Below, in pieces: positions 12,839 through 32,000 of a stretch of DNA of 32,000 nucleotides. The stretch is from NCBI RefSeq assembly GCF_003367075.2, contig NZ_CP065936.1, positions 1,830,001 to 1,862,000 of the forward strand, written 5' to 3'. The notes beneath the pieces were generated by a model. The model searched no databases, had not been told where the DNA came from, and saw only the letters and a program-made list of their open reading frames with translations. Source of the DNA: Cylindrospermopsis raciborskii Cr2010. Its GTDB lineage: Bacteria; Cyanobacteriota; Cyanobacteriia; Cyanobacteriales; Nostocaceae. Within the stretch, counting starts at the first letter, position 1; each line of letters starts with the position of its first letter. Both the position numbers and the translations under genes were made by a program.

Positions 12839-12853
12839 TTTATTATTACATAA

Positions 12854-14665: not shown

Positions 14666-14700
14666 AAATACTTATTTTCGCCATGGTAAGGTAGAGGTAG

Positions 14701-14985
14701 TTAACTTAATCGAGTTAATTGGTTTATCGTGGCAACCAAATCGCTTATGGTTATAACCCTATAATATAAATCTATATTTAAAACTGTTCTATCAATACGT
14801 GAATCACTAGGAAAAACGATAATTCCATACACTTTAGTATCTTTCATAAAGACTTTATGACGTTTGCTAATTTTTAAATTTCTATTTCTCCTAATAGCAT
14901 CACAGTAAGTTTTTACTTGTTGGTAAGGATTGTCACCCCACGATGACAGAATTTCTACTTCTTTTCCTTTTATTTTGGGACTGAG
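14701..14985 (-). pseudogene. NERD-like nuclease-related domain fragment (no start codon, C-terminal half only)
   Basis: Reverse-strand translation gives ...GKEVEILSSWGDNPYQQVKTYCDAIRRNRNLKISKRHKVFMKDTKVYGIIVFPSDSRI...ISDLVATINQLTRLS*. The W-x-G-x-NP-x-x-Q pattern followed by a V-h-h-V-F strand is what I associate with NERD domains. A stop lies upstream in the same frame. Confidence 0.35.
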
Positions 14986-15883
14986 ATTGTAATTGGGCTA
15001 TTGATTGATTCAAAATACCAATTTCATTACGCAGGTGATTAACTTCCTGCTCAAATTGACTTCTTTGACTATCTATTTGTGCTTGTTGTAATTCACGACC
15101 CTTAATTTTTTCCGCCAGGTCTATTTGTAGCCTCCTATTATTTTCTTGTAATTGTTGTTCTCTTTCTCGGGCTAAGGTATGTTCTAAAGTGATCAAAATA
15201 ATCGTTACCACAATGGCAATTATAGTTACAGTATAAGACTCAATCCAACCACTAGTGGAAAAAGGATTATTAATCCATTTAATAATATCATCCTTAAATG
15301 TTCGTTTAGGTATTCTAATATAGTAAACTCTGCCGATTATGCGACCTTTATTAATAAATTTTGTAGCAGTTCGTTCAGTTGCACGAGGATTAGCATATAC
15401 CCCTTGAGGAAAAATAGGAGGAGGATCAAGCAGCACGTCATAAGGATGATTTTTTAGTTCTTCAGGGTTAAGAGCTGCTTTCCAGGATATGGGTCTTGAA
15501 GAATTTTTACCAGAATAGGAGATAATATTTTTTCCGGTTGCATCTGTAACTATTAAACCAAATAAACTATAGTTACTGTCTAAAGTACGTTGAATTTCTT
15601 CCTGGTTTTGTTTTATTATCACATAAGAAAGTTTAGTTGGTAATGTGTGAGATAACATATTAAAATCAACGGTTTGAACCCGAAATATAGTTTTATTCCA
15701 GTAGTCTTCATGAATATTAGATGCAATTATACTGCCTATACCTGTAAATACAGATGTTATTATACTTAGTCTAACTAATGCTTCTTTTCTCCTAGTTATG
15801 CTCATCATCCTTCTTATTAATGTAATAATCATTTTATACTCCTTAACTTGGTAAACAAACGAAGGTATAAATACTGTAATCAT
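14933..15883 (-). CDS. Hypothetical membrane protein: TM, ~170-aa extracytoplasmic domain, TM, then C-terminal coiled coil
   Basis: TM1 is LVRLSIITSVFTGIGSIIASNI and TM2 is YTVTIIAIVVTIILITL. The tail is Q/E/R-rich with heptad character (REREQQLQENNRRLQIDLAEKIKGRELQQAQIDSQRSQFEQEVNHLRNEIGILNQSIAQLQSQ). I recognise no family. The start may be the internal MIITLIRR (15832). Confidence 0.55.
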   Translation of the reverse strand: MITVFIPSFVYQVKEYKMIITLIRRMMSITRRKEALVRLSIITSVFTGIGSIIASNIHEDYWNKTIFRVQTVDFNMLSHTLPTKLSYVIIKQNQEEIQRTLDSNYSLFGLIVTDATGKNIISYSGKNSSRPISWKAALNPEELKNHPYDVLLDPPPIFPQGVYANPRATERTATKFINKGRIIGRVYYIRIPKRTFKDDIIKWINNPFSTSGWIESYTVTIIAIVVTIILITLEHTLAREREQQLQENNRRLQIDLAEKIKGRELQQAQIDSQRSQFEQEVNHLRNEIGILNQSIAQLQSQSQNKRKRSRNSVIVG

Positions 15884-15956
15884 AATATTATAGTATTAAT
15901 GAACATGGACTCTAGTTTAGTCCTTATGATTTTTTCTCATAGGTAGCACTTACAAA

Positions 15957-16103
15957 ACAGGAACAATAAGCGATCGCATTTATTACTGGAGTTTAGATTA
16001 AAATGGGGAGCGATCGCTGCCCATAATAGAAGTTTATCTGCGTGCGATCGCCTGTGATTTCTATATACTCCTAAATAAGACCACAGATATTTTTAAAAAC
16101 CAA
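15957..16103 (+). repeat. HIP1-containing dispersed repeat, copy 1 (modules X then Y)
   Basis: X is ACAGGAACAATAAGCGATCGCATTTATT (15957-15984). Y is ACTGGAGTTTAGATT...GCGATCGCCTGTG(A/G)TTT(C/T)TATATACTCCTAAATAAGACCA(C/T)AGATATTTTTAAAAACCAA (15985-16103). Both recur at 19396-19552. Confidence 0.85.
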
Positions 16104-16150
16104 AACCAAAGTGCTAAAACTGAGTCGATGATTTTAATTTGTAACTGTTA

Positions 16151-16729
16151 TCAAGCTAATTCCTCAAAAACAATATCCTCATAAACCGACTGAATGGGAA
16201 AACTTAAATCAATACTTTGTAGCTCGATATTATCCCCCGACTGATAATTAAAAATCTCCCAATTACCCCGATCATTTTTGCGGTATAAATCAATCGCTAT
16301 TTTCTCAGCATCAACTAAAAGATAATCTTGCAAACTAGGATTGCGACGATACAATCTAAATTTATCCCCTCGGTCATAACTGGCCGTACTGGGAGATAAA
16401 ACCTCAACAATTAGACAGGGATATTGAATTGCTTGGATTGCAGTGCGATCGCCCTCGTCACAAGTAACGCTCACATCAGGATAAACATAATCTTTTGTTT
16501 CCAAAATATTTACACGACAATCGGAATTACCAACCTGACAACCACTACCCCGTAAATGACCTTTAACAATGAAAATAATATTACTAGCAATTCGTCCATG
16601 ATTTTGAGTTCCCCCAGTCATAGCGTAAACTTCACCATTAATATACTCATGGCGAAGCAGTTGTTTTTCTTCCCAGACAAAATATTCTTCGGGTGTTAAC
16701 TTAGGAAACTTGTCTTTTACAGCAATCAT
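16151..16729 (-). CDS. Uma2 (DUF820) family endonuclease
   Basis: 192 aa with EYINGEVYAMTGGTQNHGRIASNI, PDVSVTC, PCLIVEVLSPSTASYDRGDKFRLYR and DYLLVD. This is the canonical Uma2 PD-(D/E)xK pattern. Confidence 0.9.
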   Translation of the reverse strand: MIAVKDKFPKLTPEEYFVWEEKQLLRHEYINGEVYAMTGGTQNHGRIASNIIFIVKGHLRGSGCQVGNSDCRVNILETKDYVYPDVSVTCDEGDRTAIQAIQYPCLIVEVLSPSTASYDRGDKFRLYRRNPSLQDYLLVDAEKIAIDLYRKNDRGNWEIFNYQSGDNIELQSIDLSFPIQSVYEDIVFEELA

Positions 16730-16746
16730 TTTTTGTTACCTCATCT

Positions 16747-17088
16747 ATGGTTGACCAAATTAAAATCGCTTTTATCAACAATACCTTGCCTATTTTTTGT
16801 AGCGACAGGGGAACCCAACCCATTTGTTCGGTTTGTAGGAGTATGTCACCTAACTGTATTTTAGTTAACTCCTTGCCAATAATGCAAATTTATCGCGAGA
16901 TCGCCACGAAATTAACCATTAAATTAATCCACGCCTGGAGATTGTCTGTGGGGATACCCTTAACCTGGGAACCAGTAAGAGAGAAATTTGGCTCACCCAT
17001 TAGAATCACATCCGGGTATCGTCCACCCGCAGTCAATAGTTCCCTAGGTGGTGCGCGTAACAGTCAGCATCTTTACTTTCGCGCCTAA
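16747..17088 (+). pseudogene. Peptidase M15A-like (D-Ala-D-Ala carboxypeptidase family) fragment, truncated after the first zinc ligand
   Basis: ...VREKFGSPIRITSGYRPPAVNSSLGGARNSQH then LYFRA*. The SGYR-x4-N-x3-GG-x3-S-x-H motif is present. The following G-x-A-x-D and distal His are absent because the ORF stops 19 nt before the convergent WD40 gene. The N-terminal ~60 aa of the track ORF are probably not genuine. Confidence 0.5.
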
Positions 17089-17106
17089 GTTTGGCTAAGT
17101 TTAATG

Positions 17107-18870
17107 TTATGTTTCGGGGTAATTATAGGGAAAGACTGTAATAGTTTTATCTCCACTCCCAGTGGCTAGAAGTTTGCCATTAGGACTAAAAGTAATTGTA
17201 TAAATGGCATCTTCGGCACATTTGACTGTGGAGATTTCTTCACCGCTCTCTAGGTTCCACAACTTTGCAGTTTTATCTTTACTCCCACTAGCTACTATGT
17301 TCCCATCGGGACTAATGGCAATGGTATAAACAGCTTGAGAGTGTCCATTTAAAGTTCTAATTTCTTCCCCAGTTTCCACATTCCATAATTTAATGATTGT
17401 ATCATTACCACCACTCACCAATATTTGATTATTAGGGGTAAAGGCTAAAGCATTTATTCCCCCATTAAACCAGTTGGAATTCACTACTATGGTTCTGACT
17501 TGTTTCTCAGCTAGTTTTAAAATCATAATGGTTCCATCACGACTACCACTAGCTAATAGCTGACCATCAGGACTAAAAGCTACACATAAAACACCATCTG
17601 AATGACCCTGGAAAGAATAAATTTCTTCACCACTTTCTAAATTCCACAACTTAATAGTTTTGTCATTGCTTCCACTAGCTAGGATTTTACCTAAAGGACT
17701 GAAAACTAAAGAGTTTACCTGTTCTTGGTGTCCTGTTAACGTGATGATTTTTTCACCGCTAGTGAAGTTCCATAATCTAATGGTTTTATCTTTACTTGCA
17801 CTAGCTACTATGTTCCCATCGGGACTAACTGCTACTGAGTTAATACCTCCATTCCAGGGAGAATCTTGATGTGCTGGTAGGGTGCGATGAGTCTGAGTTA
17901 TTAAATCCCAAATTTTGATTGTTTTATCATCACTACCACTAACTAAATTTCTACCATCAGGACTAAAAGCTACTGCGGAAACTTTAGACTCATGACCTTT
18001 TAAATTTTGTACAAATAATAATTGGTTGAGATTTTCATCTACACTTGCTTCCGATTTAGATGTGGCAAGAATTACCTGATTAAATTTTCCTGTGATTGGT
18101 GAAGTTTCTATATTTTCAATACATGATGTTTTGGGAGTATTGAAATTAGGTTCTTCGGTTTCTTCTAAATTGCTTACTGTGATTAAATCATCAAAGCACC
18201 TATCTAATTCTGTCAAAGAGTTATTCACGGATTCAAAAAGTTCATTGAATCTAGAATTTTCATGATTTTGATTCTGTTTGAGTTGATTAAATTCACCAAT
18301 TGTGACGAAGTTTTGATGACAAGCTTCATGTAGTTTCTGGATTGAATCATCCAGATTTTCACAGCGAGACTCAATCTGGTCAATTTGTTGACTAATTTCG
18401 GTTAATTCTAATTTATTTTCTGTTTGCTCTAGTAAGTTTTTAATTTCACTGTCTATTGTATTTAGGCGATTATATATATCACTAATTTGTTGAGGAATTT
18501 CTTCGGTTGATACTAGCAATTTTTGTATAGAAATTTGAATTTTCTGATCAATTATTTCGTTTAGTTGTTGTTTCCAAATTTCAATTTTTTTGATTCTTTC
18601 ATTAGATTGGTTCATTGTTTGTTTAATTTCATCAACTTGATTTGTCAGATTTGTCATATTTATTTGTAGTGTTGTAATTTGTGGAATTTGTGATGATGAC
18701 CAAGCATGATTATACCTAACATAATTTCCTAAGTGCAATAGCAATATATCTAATAGGATAGGTATAACCATATATAGTATGTCTTTGGTAGCCAAGAATG
18801 CGATCACACCCAAAGACAGAAGGCTTAAACCAATATATTCCCTAGCTTGGATTTCTGGAATTTTACTCAT
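17107..18870 (-). CDS. Membrane-anchored coiled-coil / WD40-repeat protein (7 WD40 blades)
   Basis: The N-terminus has hydrophobic segments (IGLSLLSLGVIAFLA, MVIPILLDILLL). A ~200-aa coiled-coil-like Q/E/N-rich region follows. Seven WD repeats complete the protein (GH...SPDG..LASGS.DKTIKLWN). Confidence 0.9.
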   Translation of the reverse strand: MSKIPEIQAREYIGLSLLSLGVIAFLATKDILYMVIPILLDILLLHLGNYVRYNHAWSSSQIPQITTLQINMTNLTNQVDEIKQTMNQSNERIKKIEIWKQQLNEIIDQKIQISIQKLLVSTEEIPQQISDIYNRLNTIDSEIKNLLEQTENKLELTEISQQIDQIESRCENLDDSIQKLHEACHQNFVTIGEFNQLKQNQNHENSRFNELFESVNNSLTELDRCFDDLITVSNLEETEEPNFNTPKTSCIENIETSPITGKFNQVILATSKSEASVDENLNQLLFVQNLKGHESKVSAVAFSPDGRNLVSGSDDKTIKIWDLITQTHRTLPAHQDSPWNGGINSVAVSPDGNIVASASKDKTIRLWNFTSGEKIITLTGHQEQVNSLVFSPLGKILASGSNDKTIKLWNLESGEEIYSFQGHSDGVLCVAFSPDGQLLASGSRDGTIMILKLAEKQVRTIVVNSNWFNGGINALAFTPNNQILVSGGNDTIIKLWNVETGEEIRTLNGHSQAVYTIAISPDGNIVASGSKDKTAKLWNLESGEEISTVKCAEDAIYTITFSPNGKLLATGSGDKTITVFPYNYPET

Positions 18871-18889
18871 ATTTATCTACTGATTTATT

Positions 18890-19135
18890 TTATTTTTTTA
18901 GGATCTCATTTACAGTTAACTTCACCTCAGAAAATAAAGGGGAACAAATCACCTCATCACCCGTAAAAACCTGCTCCTCATATAAACCTTCCACCCACTC
19001 CAAAACAGTCACCTTTTGCGCCATCGGAAGGTTGGTTTGAGCATCACTTTCTGGGTAGACAATTTCAGGCGCGATTGTCTCCCCAAGCTGATTTTTATTG
19101 GAATTTGCCTCATCATATCTATACCTCCCATTCAC
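18890..19135 (-). pseudogene. Uma2-family endonuclease C-terminal fragment
   Basis: The 81-aa ORF ends in VTVLEWVEGLYEEQVFTGDEVICSPLFSEVKLTVNEILKK. This fits the Uma2 C-terminal pattern (strand, Y, G-D-x-h-x-S-P-h-F-x-h-x-L-x-V). The catalytic N-terminal part is missing. Confidence 0.45.
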
Positions 19136-20043: not shown

Positions 20044-20171
20044 TTCTGTGTGATGCGGGAGTTTTGCTTTGTTTAGTAGATTACACACAACCTCAACATC
20101 AAATTTATAAAAATCTGGTGATGCGTGTCAGTAAACCTATGGTTACAACTCACCTACTTACATCAGATTAA
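20040..20171 (+). pseudogene. PIN-domain (VapC-like) toxin, truncated to 43 aa at the defence-island boundary
   Basis: Translation is MILCDAGVLLCLVDYTQPQHQIYKNLVMRVSKPMVTT then HLLTSD*. The MILCD-G-L--L-D first acidic PIN motif is present and the rest of the domain is missing. The last codons overlap the brxL stop on the other strand. Confidence 0.55.
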
Positions 20172-22204
20172 TCGACAGGGTCACAACGGAGAAATGTGAC
20201 CTCAAAAGCTTTACACCCCCGGAACTCCTGCAATCGGTTTGGAATCGAGAACACATCTTTTAGGTCGTAGTGCTGAAATATGTCTAATCCCCTGTCTAAT
20301 AATATCTTCCAGCCTGTATCTGTCACTATGTGTCGAGCGTGAATGGTAGAAGTACCATCAAATTCCCACTTGAAATCAATCCCAGCAATACTACAGGAAT
20401 CTTGTATCTTCACTAAATACTCAACCTGTTGCTCCCCTTTTAATTCATCTAGGGTTGTAATTAAATTAATCTTTACTTCGTCTCTGTTGGGCTTTAACTT
20501 GATTACGGTTTCTATCAAGTCCATTAAGTTGCAGGCCTGGTGAAAAACTCGGATGTAGGGATCGGTAATGGTAATCTCCTTTGCACCCTCTAAATAGGGA
20601 CCTAACAGGGTGTCAAATGAAACCCCTCGCTGATTCTCTTTAAAGGTCAGGTGCGCTTCCTGTGGAAAAACTTCTCCATCCTCTTCCCATAATGATGGTC
20701 TCTCTTTCTCTTCGGTCAGGATCTGGTGGTAGAAGCTGGCATACTCTTCTTCTTCCAGGGTGGTGACAGTTTTACAGGTGCCCTTTCTATTTTCGTAGGC
20801 AAAGTTAACTTTCCTATAGGTAGAATCTATGCGCAATAGCTGATCTTTAACCCGCTTGCGCCCCTCTATGGCAATTTGTAACATTTCCTCTACCTCGGAC
20901 TCTGTCCCACTACCCTGGGGAAAAAGGAGTTTCATTAAACCGGAAAAGGTCTTTTGAATACCATCGCGATCGCGGGTGGAAATATCAGGAGAAAGGGAAA
21001 AGTAAGTATGATAGTAATCTGAGTAATCAAGGTTACGCATGGCTCGGAGAATTTCCGCTAGGTAGTCTACGACAAAACCATAGCCATTGCAGAACATTTC
21101 CCCCCGGATGATGTCCACTTCCCATCCGGGAATGTAAAAATGAATGCGATCCAGGAAGGCGGAATCGTGGAATTTGTCGGGAAGTTCTTCAAAAAGATCG
21201 GAGTGCTTGAGCATATAGGGGACTGTATGCTTGGTGTTACCTACAAATACCATGGAGGCTTCGGCTCCAAGGGTTTCTATACCTCGTGAAAAGGATTTGT
21301 TGGCCATGTAGTTCTTCATGATGTCTACAAGAGATTTATTCACACTCTTTTGCTTACCAGCAAACTCATCAAAGGCCACCACATCCCAATAACCAACTAA
21401 ACCAATCCTACCAGTGGAATTATTGACAAACAATTTGGCTACGGTTACTTCGCCACCGGAGATGAGGATGCCATGGGGGGAGAATTCGGAAAAAATGTGG
21501 GATTTGCCAGTCCCCTTGGGTCCAAGCTCAATTAGGTTATAGTTGCGCTCACAAAATGGAATCAGACGGATGAGCTGAAGTAGCTTGCTTCGCCTACCAA
21601 ACATCTCGGGGTTAAAACCAATACTCTGGACTAGTAAGTCAATCCATTCTTCCGTGGTGAATGCTTGGCGGGCCTGCACGTAAGTATCAAAATCAAAGTA
21701 AGATAGTTGAATGGGTTTTAGGGAGGCCAGAATCCAGGGACTAGAATTCTTATCTTCGCTAAATTCGTATTCCAGGTCTGCAATGCACCACACTCCACTC
21801 ACTAGGAGTTTGGGGTGGCTCTTGACTGTGCTAGAATCAACTAACACCTTCTTAATGCCCAGATTGCCAAACTCGGCTTCATACACATCCGCCTTTTCGT
21901 TCAACTCAACGCTGATCTTATCTATGACCTTATAACGTCCCTTTTCCCTAATATTAGAGCGAATCAGCCCTGCTTCGTTGCGATGGACATAATGTTTCCG
22001 CAATATTTCCTTAACTGTTTCAATCCCTGTGTTAATAGTGGCTTCGTCATTGGTGGCACAATACTGACCGAGAAGGTATTCGAGTACATAGGAAGGAACG
22101 ATGGCGTTACCTTTGACCGTCTTAACCAGGTCTTTTCGCACCACAAGTCCAGGAAAATGGGCATTTATCTTTTGATCCAGGTTGTTCAAAGCAGTTCCTC
22201 CCAC
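20168..22204 (-). CDS. brxL: BREX system Lon-protease-like protein BrxL
   Basis: 678 aa with N-terminal LDQKINAHFPGLVVRKDL, the P-loop ELGPKGTGKSH, and Walker B VVAFDEF. It is the last gene after pglZ. The track start is GTG at 22204. A TTG at 22189 preceded by GGGAGG is an alternative start. Confidence 0.9.
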   Translation of the reverse strand: MGGTALNNLDQKINAHFPGLVVRKDLVKTVKGNAIVPSYVLEYLLGQYCATNDEATINTGIETVKEILRKHYVHRNEAGLIRSNIREKGRYKVIDKISVELNEKADVYEAEFGNLGIKKVLVDSSTVKSHPKLLVSGVWCIADLEYEFSEDKNSSPWILASLKPIQLSYFDFDTYVQARQAFTTEEWIDLLVQSIGFNPEMFGRRSKLLQLIRLIPFCERNYNLIELGPKGTGKSHIFSEFSPHGILISGGEVTVAKLFVNNSTGRIGLVGYWDVVAFDEFAGKQKSVNKSLVDIMKNYMANKSFSRGIETLGAEASMVFVGNTKHTVPYMLKHSDLFEELPDKFHDSAFLDRIHFYIPGWEVDIIRGEMFCNGYGFVVDYLAEILRAMRNLDYSDYYHTYFSLSPDISTRDRDGIQKTFSGLMKLLFPQGSGTESEVEEMLQIAIEGRKRVKDQLLRIDSTYRKVNFAYENRKGTCKTVTTLEEEEYASFYHQILTEEKERPSLWEEDGEVFPQEAHLTFKENQRGVSFDTLLGPYLEGAKEITITDPYIRVFHQACNLMDLIETVIKLKPNRDEVKINLITTLDELKGEQQVEYLVKIQDSCSIAGIDFKWEFDGTSTIHARHIVTDTGWKILLDRGLDIFQHYDLKDVFSIPNRLQEFRGCKAFEVTFLRCDPVD

Positions 22205-24727
22205 TTAAAAATCAAAGTCACTGGTGAACGAGCGGCGCATGGTATAAGAAAGGTGTTTATACTTCTTATGTTGAGATGTGCCGGGTAGTTTTTCGTTAAG
22301 GCGCAAGTAGACCTCTTGTCCATTGGCTTCATCCGCTTTGCGTGTTAGGGTGAAGGTGACGGAAATTTCCCTATCTCTGGGATTTTCTGATTCTAGGTCA
22401 AAGGTGAGGTCATGGGAGTCGGAGATCAGTTCCTCTGTCTGAGTATAGATTCCAGCTTGCAGAAACCGGGGGTGTACTTTTTCTGTAACTGCTTGTGTCT
22501 GGTATATAACTACAGTCAGTTGGGTGGCTGTGATAATAGAACTAGCTCCCCGGAGAATTTCCACTTCCACCATAGTGATATCACTGGTTCGCTTCTTGTG
22601 GATCTTCACAATAGGAATCACCACTTCTTGCAGGGAGGCGCCACCATGGACGTAACGACTTCCCGAACCTTTAAGACGGAGACGGTTGATTGATTTGGGG
22701 ATCTGCACTTCTAGTTCCCCTTGTAGACCAAGCTGATTGGAAGTAAATTTACGTAGGCTGGGGGTCTTTTTTAGTCCCTTACCCAGGACGAAGCGGCGGT
22801 TTTTAAACAGGATCTGTTCCCCCTGGGGTTCATCACTGGCAAAATCACTATCTTCGATCGCCCGTTTCTGGTAGATAAATCCGTGGTCTGCTGTTACCAA
22901 TATATTACTAGCATTTGCACTGGTTAGTTTCTTAATCAGCTTGATGAGTTGATCTAGGGTTTCTTCAACCGCATCAAAAACTCGGGACTCTGATTCTCGT
23001 TTATCACCTATGGCATCAATGTGGTTATGATACACATAGACCAAATCATGGTCACGGAAGAGTGTGCGACGATCGTCTGAGCTTAGTTCTCTTAGATCTT
23101 CTGCGGTTATGGCAGTGGCACGTTTGGAATGTCCGCGTTTGATTTGTTTTTTACGATTTTCGGTTCCCATGGAACTTTGAGAATCTACTAAAACCGAACC
23201 ATCATTAGCTAGGGCGAGAGTGCTATGGGGGAGTAAGGCAGCCATACCAAGCTGAGTATAGCTGGGGAGCATGGCCATGGCTGATTCTAGGGTGGCTTCG
23301 TAACGATCTTCTTGGCGGATTAAGCTGATCAGTTCATCACCAATTTCAAAGCGCAAAGCATCGGAGATAATTACAAATATTTTCTTATCTGTGTTGAGAA
23401 AGGGCAGTACCCAGTGGTGAAAAAATTTATTTTGGAGATAGATATATGGTGCAGACCAACTCGTAGTCTGATCAACCCATGATTGCCAGTGATCATTCAG
23501 CTTTAAGAGGTAATTGTTAGCGTAAAGGTTTTCTATCAAATCAACTAATCCTCCCATAAATGAACAGTCTGGGACTCGGCCTAGATGGTAGATAGTTTTG
23601 CGGTAAAGCTGGTCGATGCGAAACCATGATTTAGCGTATTTTTCCACCCCTTCAGCTAGGGATTCTATGGTAAAGCATGCCCTATCTAACTCCTGTATAA
23701 ACTTAGCTGCGGCCCCAACACATTCGTAGTAGTGTTGAAACTCTTCATACCAATGGCTTTGCTTGCGCCGCCATATCCACTGAGCAACATCACTACCAAG
23801 TAAAGTTCTCTGCTCCACACCGCGCACCAGTTCGCTCAATATTCTTTGGTCAATTAGGCGGAAGTAGTCCACATCGAGCAGTTCCCCAATCTCTCTTTCT
23901 CCTAGGTCATGTTCAATGCCAAGGTCTTTAGCACACCAGCTGGATAAAGTCTCGAAGGAATGTTGACATTTAATGCTATCCTTCCATCGTTTGAGAAATA
24001 CCACAGCGTCGGAGGAGAGGTTTTGAGTTCCTTTGGGGGTGGAGGCAAAGTTTTCAAAATAGCAGTAGCTGAAGAGTTGGAGAGCAAAATCCTTCATACT
24101 TGGTTTGGCACAGCTGTAACCATAGCAGTTCTTCATCTGCTCCCAAAAATACTGCTCTAGCTCGCACCGTACCATCAGGCGATATTTATCCCCAATTTGA
24201 CCTTTCTCATACTGGGCACAGTCACTAGAAAGCTCCCCTAAAAGTTGTTCCAGAATCGCTTCCAATCGTGAGTCCGACCCACAGCCGGTGCAGACAGCTA
24301 ACATCTTTAATTGGATTTGAGTGATAGTATCGTGGGATGTAATCAATCGTTTAAGCAACTCCCTCCGCTCAGAGGATTGGAAAAAGGCAATGTGACCTTG
24401 CACCAAATGGGTAAACTCCCTACTTAGTTCCAGTTCGGCGAGCCATAGAGAAGTCTGGTCAGCACGAAACTCTGTGTGGGCCAGTTGAACATCCAGCAAC
24501 CAGTTTTCTAGGTCAGGGGGTTGAGGTCCTTCTTGATAGAGTAGGAACTTACTTTTCGGTTCCTGGTGCAGGATACGGTACTTAACGGCGAACTGGTTGT
24601 TGGTAAGTTCTATTTTCTCTACACCACCCAAAAATTCCCGGACAAGTTCCGGTTTGGCATCATACCAGAACACAATGCGGTGTTTTTCAAAGAGTTTGGT
24701 GAGGGACTGGTTAATTCGGTTAATCAT
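22205..24727 (-). CDS. pglZ: BREX alkaline-phosphatase-superfamily protein PglZ
   Basis: 840 aa. The N-terminus (RIVFWYDAKPE...NNQFAVKYRILHQEPKSKFLLYQEGPQPPDLENWLLDVQLA) is typical of type-1 BREX PglZ. The PglZ domain carries VIISDALRFEIGDEL and VTADHGF. Confidence 0.93.
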   Translation of the reverse strand: MINRINQSLTKLFEKHRIVFWYDAKPELVREFLGGVEKIELTNNQFAVKYRILHQEPKSKFLLYQEGPQPPDLENWLLDVQLAHTEFRADQTSLWLAELELSREFTHLVQGHIAFFQSSERRELLKRLITSHDTITQIQLKMLAVCTGCGSDSRLEAILEQLLGELSSDCAQYEKGQIGDKYRLMVRCELEQYFWEQMKNCYGYSCAKPSMKDFALQLFSYCYFENFASTPKGTQNLSSDAVVFLKRWKDSIKCQHSFETLSSWCAKDLGIEHDLGEREIGELLDVDYFRLIDQRILSELVRGVEQRTLLGSDVAQWIWRRKQSHWYEEFQHYYECVGAAAKFIQELDRACFTIESLAEGVEKYAKSWFRIDQLYRKTIYHLGRVPDCSFMGGLVDLIENLYANNYLLKLNDHWQSWVDQTTSWSAPYIYLQNKFFHHWVLPFLNTDKKIFVIISDALRFEIGDELISLIRQEDRYEATLESAMAMLPSYTQLGMAALLPHSTLALANDGSVLVDSQSSMGTENRKKQIKRGHSKRATAITAEDLRELSSDDRRTLFRDHDLVYVYHNHIDAIGDKRESESRVFDAVEETLDQLIKLIKKLTSANASNILVTADHGFIYQKRAIEDSDFASDEPQGEQILFKNRRFVLGKGLKKTPSLRKFTSNQLGLQGELEVQIPKSINRLRLKGSGSRYVHGGASLQEVVIPIVKIHKKRTSDITMVEVEILRGASSIITATQLTVVIYQTQAVTEKVHPRFLQAGIYTQTEELISDSHDLTFDLESENPRDREISVTFTLTRKADEANGQEVYLRLNEKLPGTSQHKKYKHLSYTMRRSFTSDFDF

Positions 24728-25166
24728 AAATGCCCTCCAGCAGGTTAGAAATCGCTTCTGAGGAAGGTAATTGACCTTTTAGTTCCTTTATTCGGGGGAT
24801 AATGGCTTTTTCTAGTTCCCATGCAATTTCTCCAACCAGTGGTTGGAGTTTTTCATCCCCACTAAACTCCAGGTAATATTGGCGCATATACCAGAGATTT
24901 TGTACGGAAAACCCTCTGATACCGGGGAATTTTTCCTGGAGATCAGCAGATAGCCTTTCTACCACGGATTTCCCCCATCCACTATCTTTTTGTCGCTCCA
25001 CGATCATTTTGCCCATGTCCCAATATAATCCTACCAGCTGGGTATTTACGGCTTTGAGAGCTGCATACTGGGCTGTGCGAACTCGTTCTTTGACCTCTAG
25101 TAGGAGTTGGGAATACTCGACTGGAGATAGAGTTGATTGGATATCTTTCTTAGATTTCTCAGCCAT
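24720..25166 (-). CDS. DUF1016 (YhcG-like) N-terminal-domain protein lacking the PD-(D/E)xK nuclease domain
   Basis: 148 aa. VKERVRTAQYAALKAVNTQLVGLYWDMGKMIVERQ...WGKSVVERLSADLQEKFPGIRGFSVQNLWYMRQYY matches the DUF1016 N-terminal helical region. Homology ends at GEIAW and no nuclease core follows. It overlaps the pglX stop by 1 nt and the pglZ start by 8 nt. Confidence 0.65.
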   Translation of the reverse strand: MAEKSKKDIQSTLSPVEYSQLLLEVKERVRTAQYAALKAVNTQLVGLYWDMGKMIVERQKDSGWGKSVVERLSADLQEKFPGIRGFSVQNLWYMRQYYLEFSGDEKLQPLVGEIAWELEKAIIPRIKELKGQLPSSEAISNLLEGIYD

Positions 25167-26802
25167 TAGTCCTCCTCTTTTGTCTCCAATCCCGGGATTT
25201 TCTTTAAAGCTAACCCAAATTTTGGGTAATTTGCCTTGACACCGTCATCCAGGTCAATGTGGATTTGCTCTATGGCCAGGGGATAGAGGATCTCTCGTTC
25301 GTAGTCATCGAGCTCTTCGATTATGGTAGCAAGTTTGTTGATTTCTTTGACTGCTTTGGTTTTCTCTGACTGGGAGGCATCAGCACTTACTTCAACTCGT
25401 TTGAGGTGATTTTGACGGGCTTCTAGTTTGGCTCGGAATTCCCGCAGGTAATCGTTTAGCACTATACTGACTGTATCTGGGCGATAGCGGTGTAGGTAGA
25501 TGAGGGCGTTGAAGTTGCTTTTGGGGGAGGAGAAAAGCCAGTAGATGGGGCGTTTTTTGTAGCGTTTGACGTGGTCGTTGTAGAAGTCTTTGAGGAAGTA
25601 TTTGCGGATATCTTTGCCTAGGGCTTTTTCGATGAATTTTAGGTTTTCTTCGTAGTGTTGTTCACCAAAGGTAAGGCGCAGGAATTGGCGGAAGCGATCG
25701 CTCATATCGTCGGTGAACCATTGGCCATCGAGAATGGGGATAACGTTGGTTTTTGTGGGGGTAAAGGTGGGATTGGGGATTTGTTGGAGGTAGTCTGGGA
25801 GGGTTTCTCCTTGGTTGGCGAGGATGAGTCCTGGTTGGTCGAGGGAGTAGCGTCCAAACATGCACCCTACTGCGTAGGAGATGTATTCTTTAATGGTGTC
25901 GGCGAGGAGAAGGGTTTCTAGTTCTGTTTGGGGTTTGGTGTGGTCGTAGCGGTAGTGGGGGTTACAGGTGAGGGTGATTTCGTTCAGGGGAACTTCGGGG
26001 GTGAGTTCGTCTTGGAGTCCGTACGCCAAGATAAATATGCGGTTATTTTCTTCTTCTAGGCGTTGCATTTCTAGGGTTGTTTGCTGCCATTGATGGCGGA
26101 GTTTTTGGTAGGTGGTTTGGAGGGTGGGTTGGCGGTAGCTGGGGTCGAGGAGGGGGAGTTTGGTGAAGTCCCAGGAGGTTTCATAGGAGTCCCAGTCGCG
26201 CATCTCTACCAAAATTAAACTTAATGTTGTATTAATAACAGTATGCACTTGACTCACTATTATTGGCAGATCCCTCACATTTTTTATTTGCAGGTTCAAT
26301 GTAGGATTAAGTGTTTTATTCAAAACTCGTGCCACTTTGCTGTTCAAGAATGCTATTAAATACTCTAAAGGATGTTCATCCTTAATAAAAACAGTTGAAC
26401 CACCTTTATCAAAGGTCTCATCTTCTACAAGCAGACGGAAACTTTGTTTTGCTGATGTTATTAACGTCCAAGTAATACCTTTTCTGTACCAAAGATACTC
26501 TGCAATAATTCGGCAGCTTGGGTCTTGTCGATAATGTGTCCTTGCAGATTCAGACCAGTTGACTATATGCTCCCTATTCCCATACCATTTTCTGTAATCA
26601 CCACCTTTTGCATATGAAAGCCACTTTTTGTTTCTACCTATTAATGAAGCAGAAACCTCCCATGTATTTCTAACAAACTTGTCATTGTTAGCTGTTATGT
26701 TTTGCCCTTCAGAAATCGTCCATTCTTCCACCCGCTCTGAACTAAACGCATTTATGATATTTTCACTCACCCAATAGGCGATCGGACTCCCCGGAATCTT
26801 CT
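25166..26802 (-). pseudogene. pglX: pglX (BREX N6-adenine methyltransferase), C-terminal part downstream of the IS insertion
   Basis: KKIPGSPIAYWVS..., ...HVKRYKKRPIYWLFSSPKSNFNALIYLHRYRPDT...IDLDDGVKANYPKFG is the conserved PglX C-terminal region. The first 17 residues of the track ORF (MRLIGSIIVVYLHENCC) are read from the IS inverted repeat and are not genuine. Confidence 0.9.
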
Positions 26803-26813
26803 TACAGCAGTTT

Positions 26814-27317
26814 TCATGTAAATAAACCACAATGATTGAACCAATTAAGCGCATCCTCTGCTGTAATATAATTTACTGCACTTGTCATGGCCTCATTTAG
26901 GGCTTCTAATGTTCGTGCCTCCCGACTACGGAGAAATTGCTTTAATTTTGACCAACACAATTCTATCGGAGATAAGTCTGGAGAATAGGGGGGTAAAAAC
27001 TTAACTTTTGCACCGACTGATTCAATTGACAATCTCACGCGCTCGGCATAATGAACCTTTAAATTATCCATAACAACAATAGCCCCTTTCCATAATTGAG
27101 GTACTAAAACCTGATTTACATAAGTGAGAAATACTTCTGTATTTGTGCTTCCCTCTACAGTCATTGCTGCCAGAATTCCATCCATATTTAAAGCCCCAAT
27201 CAGAGAAATATTTTTGCCCTTGTTTCCTGGTACGCTACCAATTGCTCTTTGTCCATCTTGGCTTCTGGCAAACAACCTTGACATCCCTAAATTTATCCCC
27301 GATTCATCTAAAAACAC
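26814..27317 (-). CDS. IS630-family transposase, DDE catalytic part (orfB)
   Basis: LDESG, VMDNLKVH and SPDLSPIELCWSKLK make up the DDE triad. The frame stays open upstream through the A8 run (...KKSLNASEQETPRVQELRHDYRRWVDTVDIRNLVFLDES) and is +1 relative to orfA. Confidence 0.85.
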   Translation of the reverse strand: MFLDESGINLGMSRLFARSQDGQRAIGSVPGNKGKNISLIGALNMDGILAAMTVEGSTNTEVFLTYVNQVLVPQLWKGAIVVMDNLKVHYAERVRLSIESVGAKVKFLPPYSPDLSPIELCWSKLKQFLRSREARTLEALNEAMTSAVNYITAEDALNWFNHCGLFT

Positions 27318-27393
27318 TAAATTTCTAATATCAACTGTATCTACCCAACGACGATAATCATGCCTTAATTCTTGAACACGTGGAGTCTCCTGT

Positions 27394-27762
27394 TCACTGG
27401 CATTTAGACTTTTTTTTATGACGTAGACCCAACTTTTCTAAGGCTCGATGCATGGTTGTGATACTAACACTAGTGCCCGTCGTTTCTCTCAGGCGATCGC
27501 ACAATTCTGAAAGTAGTAAATCATTTTTCTCATCCAGCCAAGACTTGATCATGTTTAAATATTGGCCTGCAATTACAGGCTTTTCATATCCTCCACATTG
27601 CTTTGGCTCAACTTGCCCAGTTTCACGATAACGACGTACTAAATTTCTCACAAATGATAAGCTGACCTTGAATCTTTCTGCCAACTGGCGTTGAGATCCC
27701 TCTTGAGCAACCCATGCTACAATCACGCGATTACGCAAATCTATTGAATAAGGTTTTGGCAT
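27394..27762 (-). CDS. IS630-family transposase, N-terminal HTH part (orfA)
   Basis: 122 aa. MPKPYSIDLRNRVI...GSQRQLAERFKVSLSFVRNLVRRYRETG is the typical IS630 helix-turn-helix region. It ends just after an A8 run (27410-27417). Confidence 0.85.
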   Translation of the reverse strand: MPKPYSIDLRNRVIVAWVAQEGSQRQLAERFKVSLSFVRNLVRRYRETGQVEPKQCGGYEKPVIAGQYLNMIKSWLDEKNDLLLSELCDRLRETTGTSVSITTMHRALEKLGLRHKKKSKCQ

Positions 27763-27853
27763 ATAATTTGACAGTACTTCTACTCTATTTTAGTTTATTA
27801 CCCTTATTATAGCTTATCTTATTTTGTAGTTTAACTACATGAAAATTGCTGTA

Positions 27854-29691
27854 AAATCAGCAGCAGAAGCACGGAAAAACCAACCGCAATTGGGATTTTT
27901 AATGGCTTCACGAAGCGCAGACTCCTTCTCTCCTTCGGAGTTGCCATCAACTAAACGTACATAACTTCCTTTATATTCAGAATCATTGCTATTCGCTAAA
28001 ACAAAGGCAGTTGTGGATACAACCTCACCCCCAATACTGTCAAACCCTCTTGCGCCAAGATGGGCCATGGAAAGGAGAGTATCTTGACCCAAAATACCCG
28101 CTCGAAGTTTTTCAAATGAGGAGAGAAACATCCAACTCTGCATGGTTATCATCGCAACCAAACCGTGCTTTCTCGCAAGTTGCAGATTGCGCTCAATAAA
28201 CACAGCAAATAAATCCCCCTTGCTGTCAGGATAATTATCTTTAACCCACGCCCCCAACCTGCTATTCATCCCCTTCCCACCCATATAGGGGGGATTAGCC
28301 ACCACTACATGATACTTAGAACTCAAATAATCTGCCTGCTTTAACACTTGCAAAACCTTCTGATGGGTCTGGTAAAAAAGCAGTTGCCCAGAAACATTCT
28401 TCCCTTTCAACATGGCCACTATCCCTCCCACATCTGTCGCTGTGGGACGAATGAGAGAGCCAAAATTATCAGCCTCTTCAAACTCATGTAGGGTGCTTTG
28501 CACCTTATATGTAAACAGATCCCGCCCTATAAAATCCATGTACCTCTTTAGCTCATCCTTCTCAAATATCACCTTTTGTAATACGCAAATATTCGGTTGG
28601 AAAGGCTTACGCAAGAACCGCCGATATTTCTCCCGGGCCTTCATCACCAATGCAAACGCTGCCAACTCCCCTGCTCGTTCATCAATTTCCACACCATAAA
28701 GGTTATGGGTGAGAATCTTACCAGGAATCTCAGATGGTTCATAACCTTCCTCTTCATAAATGGCATACAGCAGCTCAAAGGCATATACCAATATATGTCC
28801 GCTACCGCAGGCCGGATCACATATCTTAATCTCCTCCGGATTTTCAATGGGGAGAAAATCAGATTCAGGTACTTCTGGTTTGATATAATATTCCATGCGC
28901 TCCACCAATGGAGAATGGGGACGATTCAGCATCCACAACCGACCCAAGGAATTTTCCACCAAATATCTAACAATCCAGTGGGGGGTAAAAAGCTGGGTCG
29001 CTGCGGGAATATTCTCTGGCGTAATCTTCTTATTCTTTTTTAATCCCTCAAATACCTCATCCTTCTTCTCCGAGATATAATACTGATACAACCATCCAAT
29101 CACCTCCACATCCTGACCAACATCAGGAGTCATAGCCTCACGGGTATAGGCGAGAATAGATTTCCCTGATAGCAAATCATCGGGTAACAACAGCTCAGTG
29201 TAATCTTGAATGCGCTGAAAAAGAAAAGGCATAGCTCCATGCCAGTAGTTACAAGCAGCTACCAGTAGGAGGCGATAGGCTTCCGTTTGTGGGTCTCGGC
29301 TGGTAGAAGTTCCGTTTAGTAAGGTCAAGACATGATTTCTAGTTTTAGCTATGGGCATCATATCCTCATCAATATGTCCCATCTTAGCTTCAGCCAAAAC
29401 CTCTGGTTGGAACTGTCCTTCCAAAGGGGATATAATGGCGGTGGTGGTGTAGCCATTTAAATCCATAAACCGCAGGGCACAGAATCGGTTAAACCAGATA
29501 TAAGCCACCTGCTCAATGACCTGTTGTTTTCCCTGTTCTTTAATTTGCTGTTCTAGCTTATCTACTGCTTCTGCGCTTTCGCGACGAGCTACACTGTCTT
29601 CAGCTATTATATGATTTAATTTACTAGAAACCTGTTCAATTAGGCTGCGACGGGCAAATTGGGCAAATCTTTTGAGTCTAGTTGTATCCAT
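27854..29691 (-). pseudogene. pglX: pglX (BREX N6-adenine methyltransferase), N-terminal part upstream of the IS insertion
   Basis: MDTTRLKRFAQFARRSLIEQV...AYIWFNRFCALRFMD, DPACGSGHIL (SAM motif I) and VVANPPYMG (NPPY motif IV). The last 6 residues of the track ORF (TAIFM*) are read from the IS end. Confidence 0.92.
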
Positions 29692-29696
29692 ATATG

Positions 29697-30233
29697 TTAA
29701 TTTTCTCTCCTTTCAGTGCTTTGATTTAGGCGTGTGACGGGCCACCCGGGGAAAGTTTCGTTCCATGTCTCCAAATTGAACACTTGACAATTTTCTACTA
29801 ATTGTCGTCTCCATCGCGGCACAGTCTTACCCATAGGAGGGATCACCTTTCTTATTTCATCTGAAAAATTATCCAGTAATACTGCATCATCCAATGTTAT
29901 AATATTGAGGTAGTCCACTGGTTTGTGAATCTTTTCTTCCGCCCAGCGATACAAGAATGAATCAACAAATTTGTTTGCAAAAGTCCTGCTGAGACTCCCA
30001 TTTTTCAATTCTTCCCAAAACTTTTCCAACCCCTTTACCTGTGCTTTTGGGTTGCCAGGATCTTTAATCTCGACAAACACGATGCGCGTTTCAAACTCAA
30101 CCACGAAATCAACACGGTACATTTCGGCTACACCATGATAGTCTGGGAGTGTTTTATCCTTCATTTGATCAAAAATTAGTGCCTCTATTGCATCAGTAAA
30201 GTCAATTTCCAAATCTCCCTCTCTCACTTTCAT
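29697..30233 (-). CDS. Small PD-(D/E)xK-like (restriction-endonuclease-fold) protein, family not recognised
   Basis: 178 aa. YRVDFVVEFETRIVFVEIKD gives D-x12-E-x-K on two predicted adjacent beta strands, preceded by an acidic helix (DAIEALIFD). Its start overlaps the ATPase stop (ATGA at 30230-30233). Its stop is 5 nt from the pglX ATG. Confidence 0.5.
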   Translation of the reverse strand: MKVREGDLEIDFTDAIEALIFDQMKDKTLPDYHGVAEMYRVDFVVEFETRIVFVEIKDPGNPKAQVKGLEKFWEELKNGSLSRTFANKFVDSFLYRWAEEKIHKPVDYLNIITLDDAVLLDNFSDEIRKVIPPMGKTVPRWRRQLVENCQVFNLETWNETFPGWPVTRLNQSTERREN

Positions 30234-31312
30234 TTGCCTAAATCCCCCATTTTTAGGTTTGCCTGTTGTTTGATAAGGTCGCTAAAGGTGTCGGCAATGG
30301 CATTTGGTGACATGCCTATGTAGTTATCTACACTATCTAGTTTGATGGTTCCAGATTCATCGTCACGGTAAAGAGTATGAAACAGAATATGATCCCCTTT
30401 ACTCTTGTCCATAAGTAAGTCAAACCACTTAAGTAGGACGTAATCATGGGTTGCCAGAATAATTTGCTGTCCATTGCGTGATAGCTCTAGCAAAATGGTA
30501 ACGAGACTTTTCATTAGTTTAGGATTCATGTTTGATTCGGGCTCATCCCACAACAGCAAACCACTAACACCGGGTTGAAGCGCTCCCGTTTCTAACAGAC
30601 GGTAAAGCATTCCAACTTTGCAAATACCCTCAGCTATAGAGTTAGCGGAGTATTCAGAATCCTCGGTTCTGAAGGTGACTTTGCCTCCTCCATAAAAAAT
30701 GAATCGACCACCGCAGATGGCTTTCAGCTCTTCCATGGCCCATTTGGATTTTTCGTGCAGGTTTTCTGGACGAATTTGGGGAAGGTCTAACAACAGGCAA
30801 ATATCTTGATAGGTCTGGTCAAAGGAGACTTGGTACATCTGGTACAAACTGTTAAATCCTTCCATAAAGGAGAGGACTTCTTTGGTGGGAAAGAAAACTG
30901 GTTTGGATTGGTATTGTTCCCAGCTATTTCTATCCTTGATCTTGATTTCCAAGGATTTAGATCTGGTGCTAAAGCTAACAGCTATCTGTTGATCATGGGC
31001 AAAGTGGGCTTCTAATGTGGCTTTTGCACCTCCACCGTGGTGACGCATTTTGTTTAACTTAGCATCTAAAGGCAAAAATAGGCGTAAAAGCTCAGGGGTA
31101 AGGGCGGAAGCAAGTTCCTTAACAAGTTCTTTGTCACTAATATGGGAATTGTTTTTGAATAGGGGAGCCACACCACTGAGGAAATAAGCAGCTTTGAGCA
31201 GATGGGTTTTTCCTGTGCCATTTTTCCCGATGATCACGTTGATCTTAGGAGAAAAATCAATTTTCACTTCGGTGAAGGCCATGAAGTTTTTCAGTTCTAA
31301 ATGTGTTATCAT
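30230..31312 (-). CDS. ABC/SMC-type (AAA_15/AAA_21-like) ATPase, 360 aa
   Basis: MITHLELKNFMAFTEVKIDF...IIGKNGTGKTHLLKA is the N-terminal strand plus Walker A. SIAEG is signature-like, LLLWDEPESNMNP is Walker B plus D-loop, and ILATHD is the H-loop. It is the first gene of the operon. Confidence 0.85.
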   Translation of the reverse strand: MITHLELKNFMAFTEVKIDFSPKINVIIGKNGTGKTHLLKAAYFLSGVAPLFKNNSHISDKELVKELASALTPELLRLFLPLDAKLNKMRHHGGGAKATLEAHFAHDQQIAVSFSTRSKSLEIKIKDRNSWEQYQSKPVFFPTKEVLSFMEGFNSLYQMYQVSFDQTYQDICLLLDLPQIRPENLHEKSKWAMEELKAICGGRFIFYGGGKVTFRTEDSEYSANSIAEGICKVGMLYRLLETGALQPGVSGLLLWDEPESNMNPKLMKSLVTILLELSRNGQQIILATHDYVLLKWFDLLMDKSKGDHILFHTLYRDDESGTIKLDSVDNYIGMSPNAIADTFSDLIKQQANLKMGDLGK

Positions 31313-31324
31313 ATTTATGTTATT

Positions 31325-31505
31325 TTGTACCCATATCTCTTAGTTTTTTCTCGACTCAGTGCTTTGATTTAGGCATGTGATGTACCACTTGGAATACACT
31401 TATGTATTTGTCTACACTATCTAGTTCGATGGTTCCAGATTCAGCCTTATTGTGTAGGCTATGAAACTGTGTATAGTCCCTTTTACTGTTGTCTATAAGT
31501 AATTA
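31325..31505 (-). pseudogene. Decayed paralogous copy of the ATPase 3' end, nuclease 3' end and pglX-start junction
   Basis: 31399-31503 aligns to 30316-30420 (ATPase codons for ...ESGTI(E/K)LDSVD(K/N)YI...). 31340-31393 aligns to 29697-29750 (nuclease C-terminus: KWYITCLNQSTESRKN* vs GWPVTRLNQSTERREN*). 31325-31336 TTGTACCCATAT matches 29682-29693 TTGTATCCATAT (pglX ATG). About 0.56 kb is deleted between the two pieces. Confidence 0.7.
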
Positions 31506-31577
31506 AATGGAGAATTGGTACTTCTTGTCAATACCTCAGCCCAAAAAAGATTATGAAATGCTAGGACTGACCATTTA

Positions 31578-31697
31578 AAAAAAAAGATTTATTGGAAAGA
31601 CTAGTATTATGGACCGGGGCTTATTTTGTAGCTAGTTGTGGAGGTGTCAGACCAACTTAAAAAATATGTAGAGAATCAAGATTCCCTTGAACATTAG
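31578..31697 (+). pseudogene. IS200/IS605-family TnpA (Y1 transposase) C-terminal remnant, frameshifted
   Basis: Pieces in two frames: KKRFIGKTS / LWTGAYFVASCGGV / DQLKKYVENQDSLEH*. This resembles the conserved TnpA C-terminus (LW-x-x-YF-x-S-x-GG...YI-x-x-Q). No intact ORF remains. Confidence 0.45.
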
Positions 31698-31746
31698 TTG
31701 TGCTTGTCTTATAGCGTTATAATGGATCGCTCTAGCATTCGGCGCA

Positions 31747-32000
31747 TTACGGGATGAAAATGCGTCTTGCGCCTTGATACTCTTCAATATCAACTACAAT
31801 ATCAACCAAACGATTAACGCAGCGATTGCGATAATCTGGCTCGGAAAGTAGTCGATCAATATTACCGATTGTAACGACGGGTAATGATGTGGGGGTATTT
31901 TCCTCCCGCATCACTTGCTCCAGGGAATCTTTGCCTTTCATGCTTCGGTTACCGGTGATCAGGATCATCTGATTGGCTTGAGCATACCGCCAAACAACGC
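31747..32000 (-). CDS. Conserved hypothetical protein, partial (N-terminus beyond window end); possibly PIN-like
   Basis: The frame is open to the window edge (...VVWRYAQANQMILITGNRSMKGKDSLEQVMREENTPTSLPVVTIGNIDRLL...GARRIFIP*). LITxNR and the C-terminal pattern recall small nuclease-like proteins, but I cannot name the family. Confidence 0.4.
   Translation of the reverse strand, partial: VVWRYAQANQMILITGNRSMKGKDSLEQVMREENTPTSLPVVTIGNIDRLLSEPDYRNRCVNRLVDIVVDIEEYQGARRIFIP

Follow-up and report, generated by a model that had tools for sequence, protein, structure and literature searches.

A gene pair very probably representing HEC-02, nested in a type 1 BREX locus of Cylindrospermopsis raciborskii Cr2010

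We analyzed a 32,000-nt stretch of the Cylindrospermopsis raciborskii Cr2010 genome (contig NZ_CP065936.1, positions 1,830,001 to 1,862,000; the whole stretch is referred to below as the window), with a focus on two overlapping genes nested in the minus-strand operon of a type 1 bacteriophage exclusion (BREX) system, directly upstream of the methyltransferase gene pglX. From the sequence of the window, an earlier reading (the original prediction) had proposed them as a candidate two-gene defence module composed of an ATPase and a PD-(D/E)xK nuclease; the BREX context had been overlooked there. Our comparisons make it highly probable that the pair is the HEC-02 anti-phage system, i.e. an ATP-binding cassette (ABC)-type ATPase and a small NERD-like PD-(D/E)xK nuclease, placed between brxC and pglX. 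The two genes are named here after that system:

30230..31312, minus strand: HEC-02A, 360 aa, ATG start; ABC-type (AAA_15/AAA_21, OLD-like) ATPase, presumed sensor or regulator
29697..30233, minus strand: HEC-02B, 178 aa, ATG start; putative PD-(D/E)xK-type nuclease effector (D42, E55, K57)

Both open reading frames (ORFs) were located exactly as predicted, and the stop codon of HEC-02A and the start codon of HEC-02B share the sequence ATGA, as read in the window. In public records the former protein is labelled 'AAA family ATPase' and the latter 'hypothetical protein'.

All of the ATPase motifs quoted in the original prediction were found in HEC-02A, and their catalytic positions were conserved at 97–100% among 45 ATPases from related loci. 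Full conservation was observed for Walker A (GKNGTGKT, residues 29–36; G29, N31, G34 and K35), the signature-like motif (SIAEG, residues 225–229; A227, E228 and G229) and Walker B (LLLWDEPE, residues 252–259; L253, W255, D256, E257, P258 and E259), while T288 and H289 of the H-loop (ATHD, residues 287–290) were conserved at 97%. Comparison with Pfam gave matches to AAA_21 (2e-21, 77.8 bits; cut-off 27) and AAA_15 (1.6e-18, 67.9 bits; cut-off 32.1), and the thresholds of AAA_23 and SMC_N were also exceeded. The matches to Rad50, RecF, OLD and PtuA (solved structures and NCBIfam models) were limited to the N-terminal P-loop or to a short Walker B segment. Because the Pfam thresholds were passed and these other matches were only local, HEC-02A belongs, as judged from its sequence, to the OLD-like class and is a small ATPase of ABC type.

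HEC-02B gave no match in Pfam or NCBIfam. The active-site pattern proposed for it is contained in VDFVVEFETRIVFVEIKD, which begins at residue 41 and reads D42-x12-E55-x-K57. All three residues were invariant in 51 close homologues. In 115 representatives of the family, with 28–55% identity, D42 and E55 were again invariant and K57, D58, K88, D91, F21, D22, W141 and W157 were conserved at 90% or more, so that the acidic/lysine triad expected by the original prediction extends to distant relatives. The family is large, with 214 matches in a 90%-clustered database and 480 clusters at 50% identity. Its sub-threshold Pfam matches cluster on NERD, SduA_C, DpnII, UPF0102, Hjc and PDDEXK_9. Searching sequences of the PDB with the family profile returned two matches, both insignificant, one of which (the DUF1887 protein 8bao) aligned its D..ExK motif with that of the profile.

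The first AlphaFold model of HEC-02B, built from the 51 close homologues, reached a pLDDT (predicted local distance difference test) score of 63, yielded nothing significant in Foldseek and was discarded. The AlphaFold 2 model that replaced it was built from the 115 diverse representatives, with pLDDT 93.7 and a predicted template modelling score (pTM) of 0.89. In this model D42 lies just before strand 43–46 and E55 and K57 lie in strand 51–57, the two strands being joined by a short loop into a beta-hairpin. The proposed location of D-x12-E-x-K on two adjacent strands was thus borne out. The best Foldseek matches in the PDB were the catalytic domain of N.BspD6I and the small subunit of R.BspD6I (186 aa), with probabilities of 0.97–1.00, the latter being a small stand-alone PD-(D/E)xK protein like HEC-02B. 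Further matches were XisH, McrC, the RecB nuclease, HincII, Bse634I and Hjc, all of them PD-(D/E)xK proteins. Among solved structures the model thus comes closest to restriction-type nucleases, at marginal scores. The weak sequence signals described above agree with this independently, and we accept HEC-02B as a putative member of the PD-(D/E)xK superfamily.

The two proteins were assigned to HEC-02 by means of PADLOC models. HEC-02A matched the HEC-02A model PDLC04213 over almost its whole length (E 8.2e-115; residues 1–356 on model positions 1–335 of 337), and HEC-02B matched the HEC-02B model PDLC04229 (E 1.5e-69; residues 1–170 on model positions 1–169 of 171) as well as eight further HEC-02B models (E 7e-39 to 9e-9). 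HEC-02, or 'Hma-embedded candidate 02', consists of an ABC ATPase and a NERD / PD-(D/E)xK protein in the description by Payne et al. (bioRxiv 10.1101/2024.01.29.577857), who introduced the two genes of Dickeya dianthicola NCPPB 3534, alone and on their own plasmid, into E. coli; phage plaquing was lowered and both genes were needed for the effect. Compared with the Dickeya proteins, HEC-02A showed 32% identity (E 2e-47), and the HEC-02B family profile was aligned with the tested HEC-02B by hhalign (probability 97.2%, E 3e-11) so that the D, ExKD and K88 positions coincided.

The module is thus already catalogued in PADLOC-DB and laboratory-tested as HEC-02, and the pair is not new: the proposal of an unnamed module falls before a clear match to a named system, and both the combination of an ATPase with a nuclease and the placement of the partner as NERD / PD-(D/E)xK had been published. 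The window pair shares with the described system the gene order, with the ABC ATPase upstream of the small NERD / PD-(D/E)xK protein, adjacent and co-oriented, as well as the embedding within a larger modification-based defence system. It differs in its host system, which is type 1 BREX instead of the original Hma, and in belonging to a subfamily far from the tested Dickeya homologue (32% identity for A; B related by profile only). Payne et al. (10.1101/2024.01.29.577857) also tabulated cassettes that lie within BREX, DISARM and type I restriction-modification (R-M) systems, and one entry of this table, with a count of 347, is annotated 'Incorporate into HEC-02 model'. In a survey of BREX loci (NAR 2026, PMC12839542), OLD-ABC ATPases paired with PD-(D/E)xK, HNH or PIN nucleases near BREX were read as backup effectors; these are dyads of the same kind in the same host system, reported at survey level. 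In December 2025 citations of the work of Payne et al. still referred to the preprint, and HEC-02 had not been given another name.

To describe the distribution of the pair, one genome per species was scanned with the HEC-02B family, which gave 48 loci. In all 48, recovered through B alone, the ATPase gene lay directly upstream of HEC-02B, and in at least 27 of them A and B overlapped by 4 nt (ATGA or GTGA). BREX genes adjoined the pair in 36 loci, and in 35 of these it directly abutted a pglX gene or gene part. Outside this group, one locus carried BrxHI after the pair, in one the pair was placed between type I hsdM and hsdR, and in another it was flanked by type IIG enzymes. In total, at least 37 of the 48 related loci were embedded in BREX and two more were placed beside R-M genes. 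Identical HEC-02A and HEC-02B proteins are present in many Cylindrospermopsis genomes. Given the strict A–B order, the recurrent overlap and these identical proteins, the observed pair is far beyond chance. The reading of the genes as an ATPase and PD-(D/E)xK defence pair is supported by the PADLOC matches, the triad, the predicted fold, the loci and the tested homologue.

From locus to locus, A and B differ independently of each other in their identity to the window pair (42% for A and 65% for B in L002–L009; 64% and 35%, respectively, in L033), which is consistent with a split between sensor and effector, the former diversifying and the latter exchangeable. ATPase and nuclease subtypes were also found to be mixed between loci (L033, L002–L009 and L034–L042 compared with the window), which suggests recombination between the A and B genes.

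Several observations weigh against the reading of the pair as a HEC-02 defence module. The fold matches of HEC-02B to solved nucleases were marginal (E ~4e-3, template modelling (TM) score 0.36–0.44), and its sequence identity to the BspD6I-type domains was 11–16%. A pairwise BLASTP comparison of the window HEC-02B with the Dickeya protein was not significant, the two being linked by the profile comparison only. The Pfam NERD model (PF08378) gave no match to the window HEC-02B and touched just 5 of the 115 family members, with E 0.0086 or worse; placement in the NERD sub-family, based by Payne et al. (bioRxiv 10.1101/2024.01.29.577857) on structural superposition, is thus not supported by the Pfam model. 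Some distant members of the family (L032, L047) lie beside housekeeping genes and not in defence loci. Finally, HEC-02B is truncated (64–154 aa) in several Cylindrospermopsis strains; the system is therefore dispensable and is being lost in some lineages.

The original prediction had likened the pair to Septu, PARIS and the OLD/Gabija class. The AAA_15/AAA_21-type ABC ATPase class is indeed common to HEC-02A, Septu (PtuA with the HNH protein PtuB) and Gabija/OLD (ATPase-TOPRIM), and PARIS (the ABC ATPase AriA with the TOPRIM nuclease AriB) likewise combines a small ABC ATPase sensor with a separate nuclease effector, but the nuclease partners that define these systems were not found with Pfam or PADLOC. 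The PADLOC models of AriA matched HEC-02A partially (E 6.5e-23), far below the HEC-02A model (8e-115), and the effector of PARIS is a TOPRIM/DUF4435 protein, whereas the window partner is of the PD-(D/E)xK type, and neither Pfam nor PADLOC matched it to TOPRIM or AriB. Membership in PARIS was rejected, as was membership in Septu, the PtuA models covering only residues 2–54 of HEC-02A and the partner having no HNH match in Pfam or PADLOC. OLD/Gabija was also discarded: HEC-02A is just 360 aa long and has no TOPRIM match in PADLOC, and no helicase gene adjoins it. With the PADLOC models of GajA and Old, HEC-02A shared one short stretch each, at the ~45-residue N-terminal P-loop and at residues ~249–290, respectively.

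The surroundings of the pair in the window, all on the minus strand, were annotated as follows:

31747..32000, minus strand: 3' end of a DUF5615 gene (ORF; gene tables of sister loci L049–L052; Pfam DUF433, DUF5615)
27852..29691, minus strand: 5' part of pglX, BREX-1 methyltransferase N-terminal domain (NCBIfam BREX_1_MTaseX 9.6e-234; PADLOC PglX)
26805..27851, minus strand: IS630-family insertion in pglX (Pfam DDE_3 and helix-turn-helix, HTH; duplication of TA)
27394–27762, minus strand: HTH ORF of the IS630 element (Pfam)
26814–27317, minus strand: DDE_3 ORF of the IS630 element (Pfam)
25166..26804, minus strand: 3' part of pglX, C-terminal, motif-recognition domain (PADLOC PglX PDLC02521, positions 631–1173)
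24720..25166, minus strand: ORF of 148 aa with DUF1016_N only (Pfam DUF1016_N 1.2e-31)
22205..24727, minus strand: pglZ (Pfam PglZ 1.4e-62; PADLOC PglZ, E 0)
20168..22204, minus strand: brxL, BREX Lon-like ATPase (Pfam BrxL_ATPase 1.6e-132 and BrxL_N; PADLOC BrxL)

The start of pglX (29691) lies 6 nt downstream of HEC-02B. The boundaries of its two parts were set by comparison with the uninterrupted pglX of the sister genome L052, which lacks the IS630 insertion and is otherwise 99.5–99.98% identical, with a 2-nt overlap at the junction. The insertion is strain-specific and splits pglX; because pglX is broken, BREX is probably inactive in this strain, in which HEC-02 is intact. In the sister genomes (L049–L052) the gene order is brxB-brxC-DUF433-DUF5615-HEC-02A-HEC-02B-pglX-DUF1016_N-pglZ-brxL; their intact pglX genes encode 1158–1180 aa, and brxA was not called at any of these loci. 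We presume the DUF433/DUF5615 pair between brxC and HEC-02 (8800–9566 in L049) to be toxin-antitoxin (TA)-like. In L051 pglX is fragmented and pglZ carries an IS1 insertion, while HEC-02A is identical. With pglX broken by IS630 in the window and both genes affected in L051, BREX is decaying in Cylindrospermopsis while HEC-02A stays identical. A promoter and terminator scan of 29500–32000 found sites no more frequently than in shuffled sequence and was uninformative on the transcription of the pair.

Other features of the BREX locus also vary. The central part of pglX (26197–28102 in the window, compared with 13211–14079 in L049/L050), which surrounds the domain boundary and the beginning of the recognition domain, shows no nucleotide match between strains except for a 62-nt island (27852–27913), and its flanks are 98–99% identical. 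This suggests recombinational swapping of the PglX specificity segment between strains. The 148-aa DUF1016_N ORF (24720–25166) overlaps both of its neighbours, pglX and pglZ. Its PADLOC PDC-S02 matches span only the N-terminal ~120 model positions, and longer versions occupy the same position elsewhere (391 aa, full-length, in L001; a 343-aa ORF in L008; a longer ORF in L029), so it has the appearance of an embedded PDC-S02 (YhcG-like PD-(D/E)xK) gene reduced to its N-terminal part. Between the rRNA operon and BREX, an island of low guanine and cytosine content (31–39%) was observed at 13000–19000, which may hold further defence genes:

13775–14665: SMC_N/AAA_23-like ATPase, 296 aa, with a weakly PtuA-like N-terminus
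14933–15883: protein of 316 aa without a match
16151–16729: Uma2 putative endonuclease (PADLOC PDC-S03)
17107–18870: WD40 protein

Directly upstream of HEC-02A, a repeat search (families D1 and D2) followed by pairwise alignment identified two adjoining remnants of coding sequence:

31401..31507, minus strand: non-coding HEC-02A ghost, 107 nt, 79% identity with 30317–30423 in the 3' region of HEC-02A
31325..31388, minus strand: HEC-02B/pglX ghost, 64 nt, 81% identical to 29682–29745

The second ghost corresponds to HEC-02B at its 3' end, the spacer between the genes and the opening 10 nt of pglX; it abuts the HEC-02A ghost and ends ~12 nt before the HEC-02A start codon. Its pglX start opens a mini-ORF of four codons, the end of which lies 7 nt ahead of the HEC-02A ATG. 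By their sequence the ghosts are a decayed trace of an earlier HEC-02–pglX junction, which implies that the cassette was duplicated or replaced. Such decayed remnants upstream of the pair may be new. A locus with stacked cassettes, L019 (6530–15983), appears analogous: a 376-aa HEC-01A-like ATPase and its unassigned 179-aa partner are followed by a pglX 5' remnant (8402–8659), then by HEC-02A/B, an intact pglX, and a HEC-01A/B pair before pglZ. The window ghosts would correspond to the pglX remnant between the stacked ATPase pairs.

At certain related loci pglX itself is divided. In L002–L009 and L029 (~7000–15800 in each) it is present as two intact ORFs, PglX-N and PglX-C. PglX-N is ~602–621 aa long and ends with ...RLVDGNSEAEKMEMLAEAIAQGRAA, and PglX-C begins with MSxSQAS...KKYFFRASAxDFxKIPGNPIAYW. 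The split point falls exactly in the linker that joins the methyltransferase domain to the motif-recognition domain and reads ...EAIKNPNCGW/FFRASAADFKKIPG in intact PglX, just within the C-terminal limit of the region with methyltransferase homology (residues 227–661 in the Salmonella structure) and near the hinge that connects the N-terminal and the C-terminal domain. The HEC-02A start overlaps the PglX-N stop codon, which couples HEC-02A/B translationally to PglX-N; HEC-02B comes next, followed by a variable slot that is empty or contains SIR2+HerA or a UG5-nitrilase DRT reverse transcriptase. Altogether, HEC-02 was found inside a naturally split pglX in 13 loci. The best 120 clusters matching PglX-C were all 579–602 aa long, and in the loci picked through PglX-C alone (L053–L056; P. 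aeruginosa, Stenotrophomonas, Herbaspirillum and Comamonas) HEC-02 was present in the split in four of four. The following slot contents and intervals were recorded:

L053, 8780–9004: slot stub, 74-aa C-terminal ghost of a UG5-nitrilase DRT reverse transcriptase
L055, 8358–9008: slot stub, 216-aa C-terminal ghost of HerA
L056, 5987–8998: slot interval
L002, 10251–14014: slot interval

The stubs overlap the PglX-C start; deleted slot cassettes thus leave behind 3' ghosts, which are perhaps retained for translational coupling. The nesting of HEC-02 in a split pglX, in a widespread proteobacterial BREX-1 clade, may be new: a literature search for split or truncated PglX returned nothing relevant, and in the NAR 2026 BREX survey (PMC12839542) the word 'split' is absent and the nesting is not described. 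The window pglX was considered as an example of the natural split and rejected, its break being the strain-specific IS630 insertion, situated ~10 codons downstream of where pglX divides naturally in other taxa. Taken together, the nesting in split pglX and the ghosts point to repeated replacement of cassettes at the pglX edges.

A mechanism for the pair can be outlined from what was observed, namely the identity of both proteins, the conservation of their motifs, the fold class, the strict A–B linkage and the embedding in BREX or R-M loci. Drawing an analogy to PARIS and other systems with ABC ATPases, we infer that the translationally coupled HEC-02A and HEC-02B would form a complex. HEC-02A would sense the infection, probably by way of variable inserts that recognize a component of the phage, for which a factor directed against restriction or BREX is plausible. 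By the same analogy, binding or hydrolysis of ATP by HEC-02A might trigger the release or activation of the nuclease, and HEC-02B would then cut a nucleic acid substrate at a metal site formed by D42, E55 and K57, so that either phage replication is stopped directly or the infected cell is aborted. Nested in BREX, the pair could form a second layer of defence that works if BREX is inhibited, and also where, as here, BREX has been broken by IS630.

The main rival to this autonomous defence role is that HEC-02 is tied to PglX, as an integral BREX accessory that works with or guards the methyltransferase (e.g. by sensing Ocr-like DNA mimics) and fires only in a BREX context. Its position suggests this: 35 of the 36 BREX-embedded pairs directly abut pglX or a part of it, and in the 13 split loci the HEC-02A start overlaps the PglX-N stop. 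Moreover, PARIS, which senses Ocr, holds the same brxC–pglX junction in Salmonella BREX, and backup roles have been proposed by Payne et al. (10.1101/2024.01.29.577857) and in the NAR 2026 survey (PMC12839542). We nevertheless regard a strict dependence on BREX as rather unlikely, if worth keeping in view. It is weakened above all by the stand-alone activity of the Dickeya system, whose two genes, and only these, defended E. coli from their own plasmid. Family members are also found in type I R-M loci, beside type IIG enzymes and in non-defence contexts, adjacency to pglX may merely reflect a permissive operon junction, and in the window the pair is intact although pglX is broken by IS630. An extended form of the same idea, in which HEC-02 guards PglX (e.g. 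firing on an Ocr-like inhibitor), the split is a hot spot where defence cassettes, as well as the specificity domains of PglX, are exchanged, and the window ghosts record the same turnover, is offered as a tentative proposal that we likewise hold to be doubtful.

The mobility of the pair, seen in its spread among loci and taxa (55–72% identity from cyanobacteria to Proteobacteria, Chlorobi and Synergistetes) and in a turnover that has left ghosts of earlier copies and stacked cassettes, would also suit a selfish addiction cassette of the TA type, in which the ATPase restrains a toxic nuclease and phage defence is incidental. The Pfam description of AAA_21 reads 'putative AbiEii toxin, Type IV TA system', and the pair adjoins the DUF433/DUF5615 pair, which we presume to be TA-like. 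This explanation appears improbable, since the anti-phage activity measured for the homologue needs both genes and the strong bias toward modification-based defence loci is more easily explained by defence. Least probable, to the point that we give it little weight, is a repair or housekeeping role in which a RecF/Rad50-like ATPase acts with an adaptor, HEC-02B being an inactive or purely DNA-binding protein of PD-(D/E)xK fold. The N-terminus of HEC-02A does weakly match models of RecF, Rad50, SbcC and RecN, but the RecF/Rad50-type matches span only the ~45-residue P-loop region and are far below the family cut-offs. The marginal fold-search scores and the few distant homologues beside translation genes could be cited in its favour; they are countered by the D/E/K triad and D58, conserved in the 115 diverse representatives as an active site would be, by a genomic context that is overwhelmingly one of defence, and by the defence phenotype of the homologue. 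An anti-phage role as HEC-02 thus remains our preferred reading of the pair.

With this finding, HEC-02, already present in PADLOC-DB and tested in E. coli, gains a cyanobacterial example embedded in BREX, a typical location for the system. It has some practical value, public records still using the labels 'hypothetical protein' and 'AAA family ATPase'. Only the nesting in split pglX and the cassette ghosts may merit additional study, and such side observations could matter more than the pair itself. A conserved two-gene PglX with HEC-02 inside would mean that the methyltransferase and specificity domains of the BREX enzyme can act as separate subunits, and split pglX would be a defined site of defence-cassette exchange. 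Phage resistance is of ecological relevance in Cylindrospermopsis raciborskii, which forms toxic blooms. Since BREX is broken by IS630 and HEC-02 is intact, the embedded pair may be the working part of the locus in this strain.

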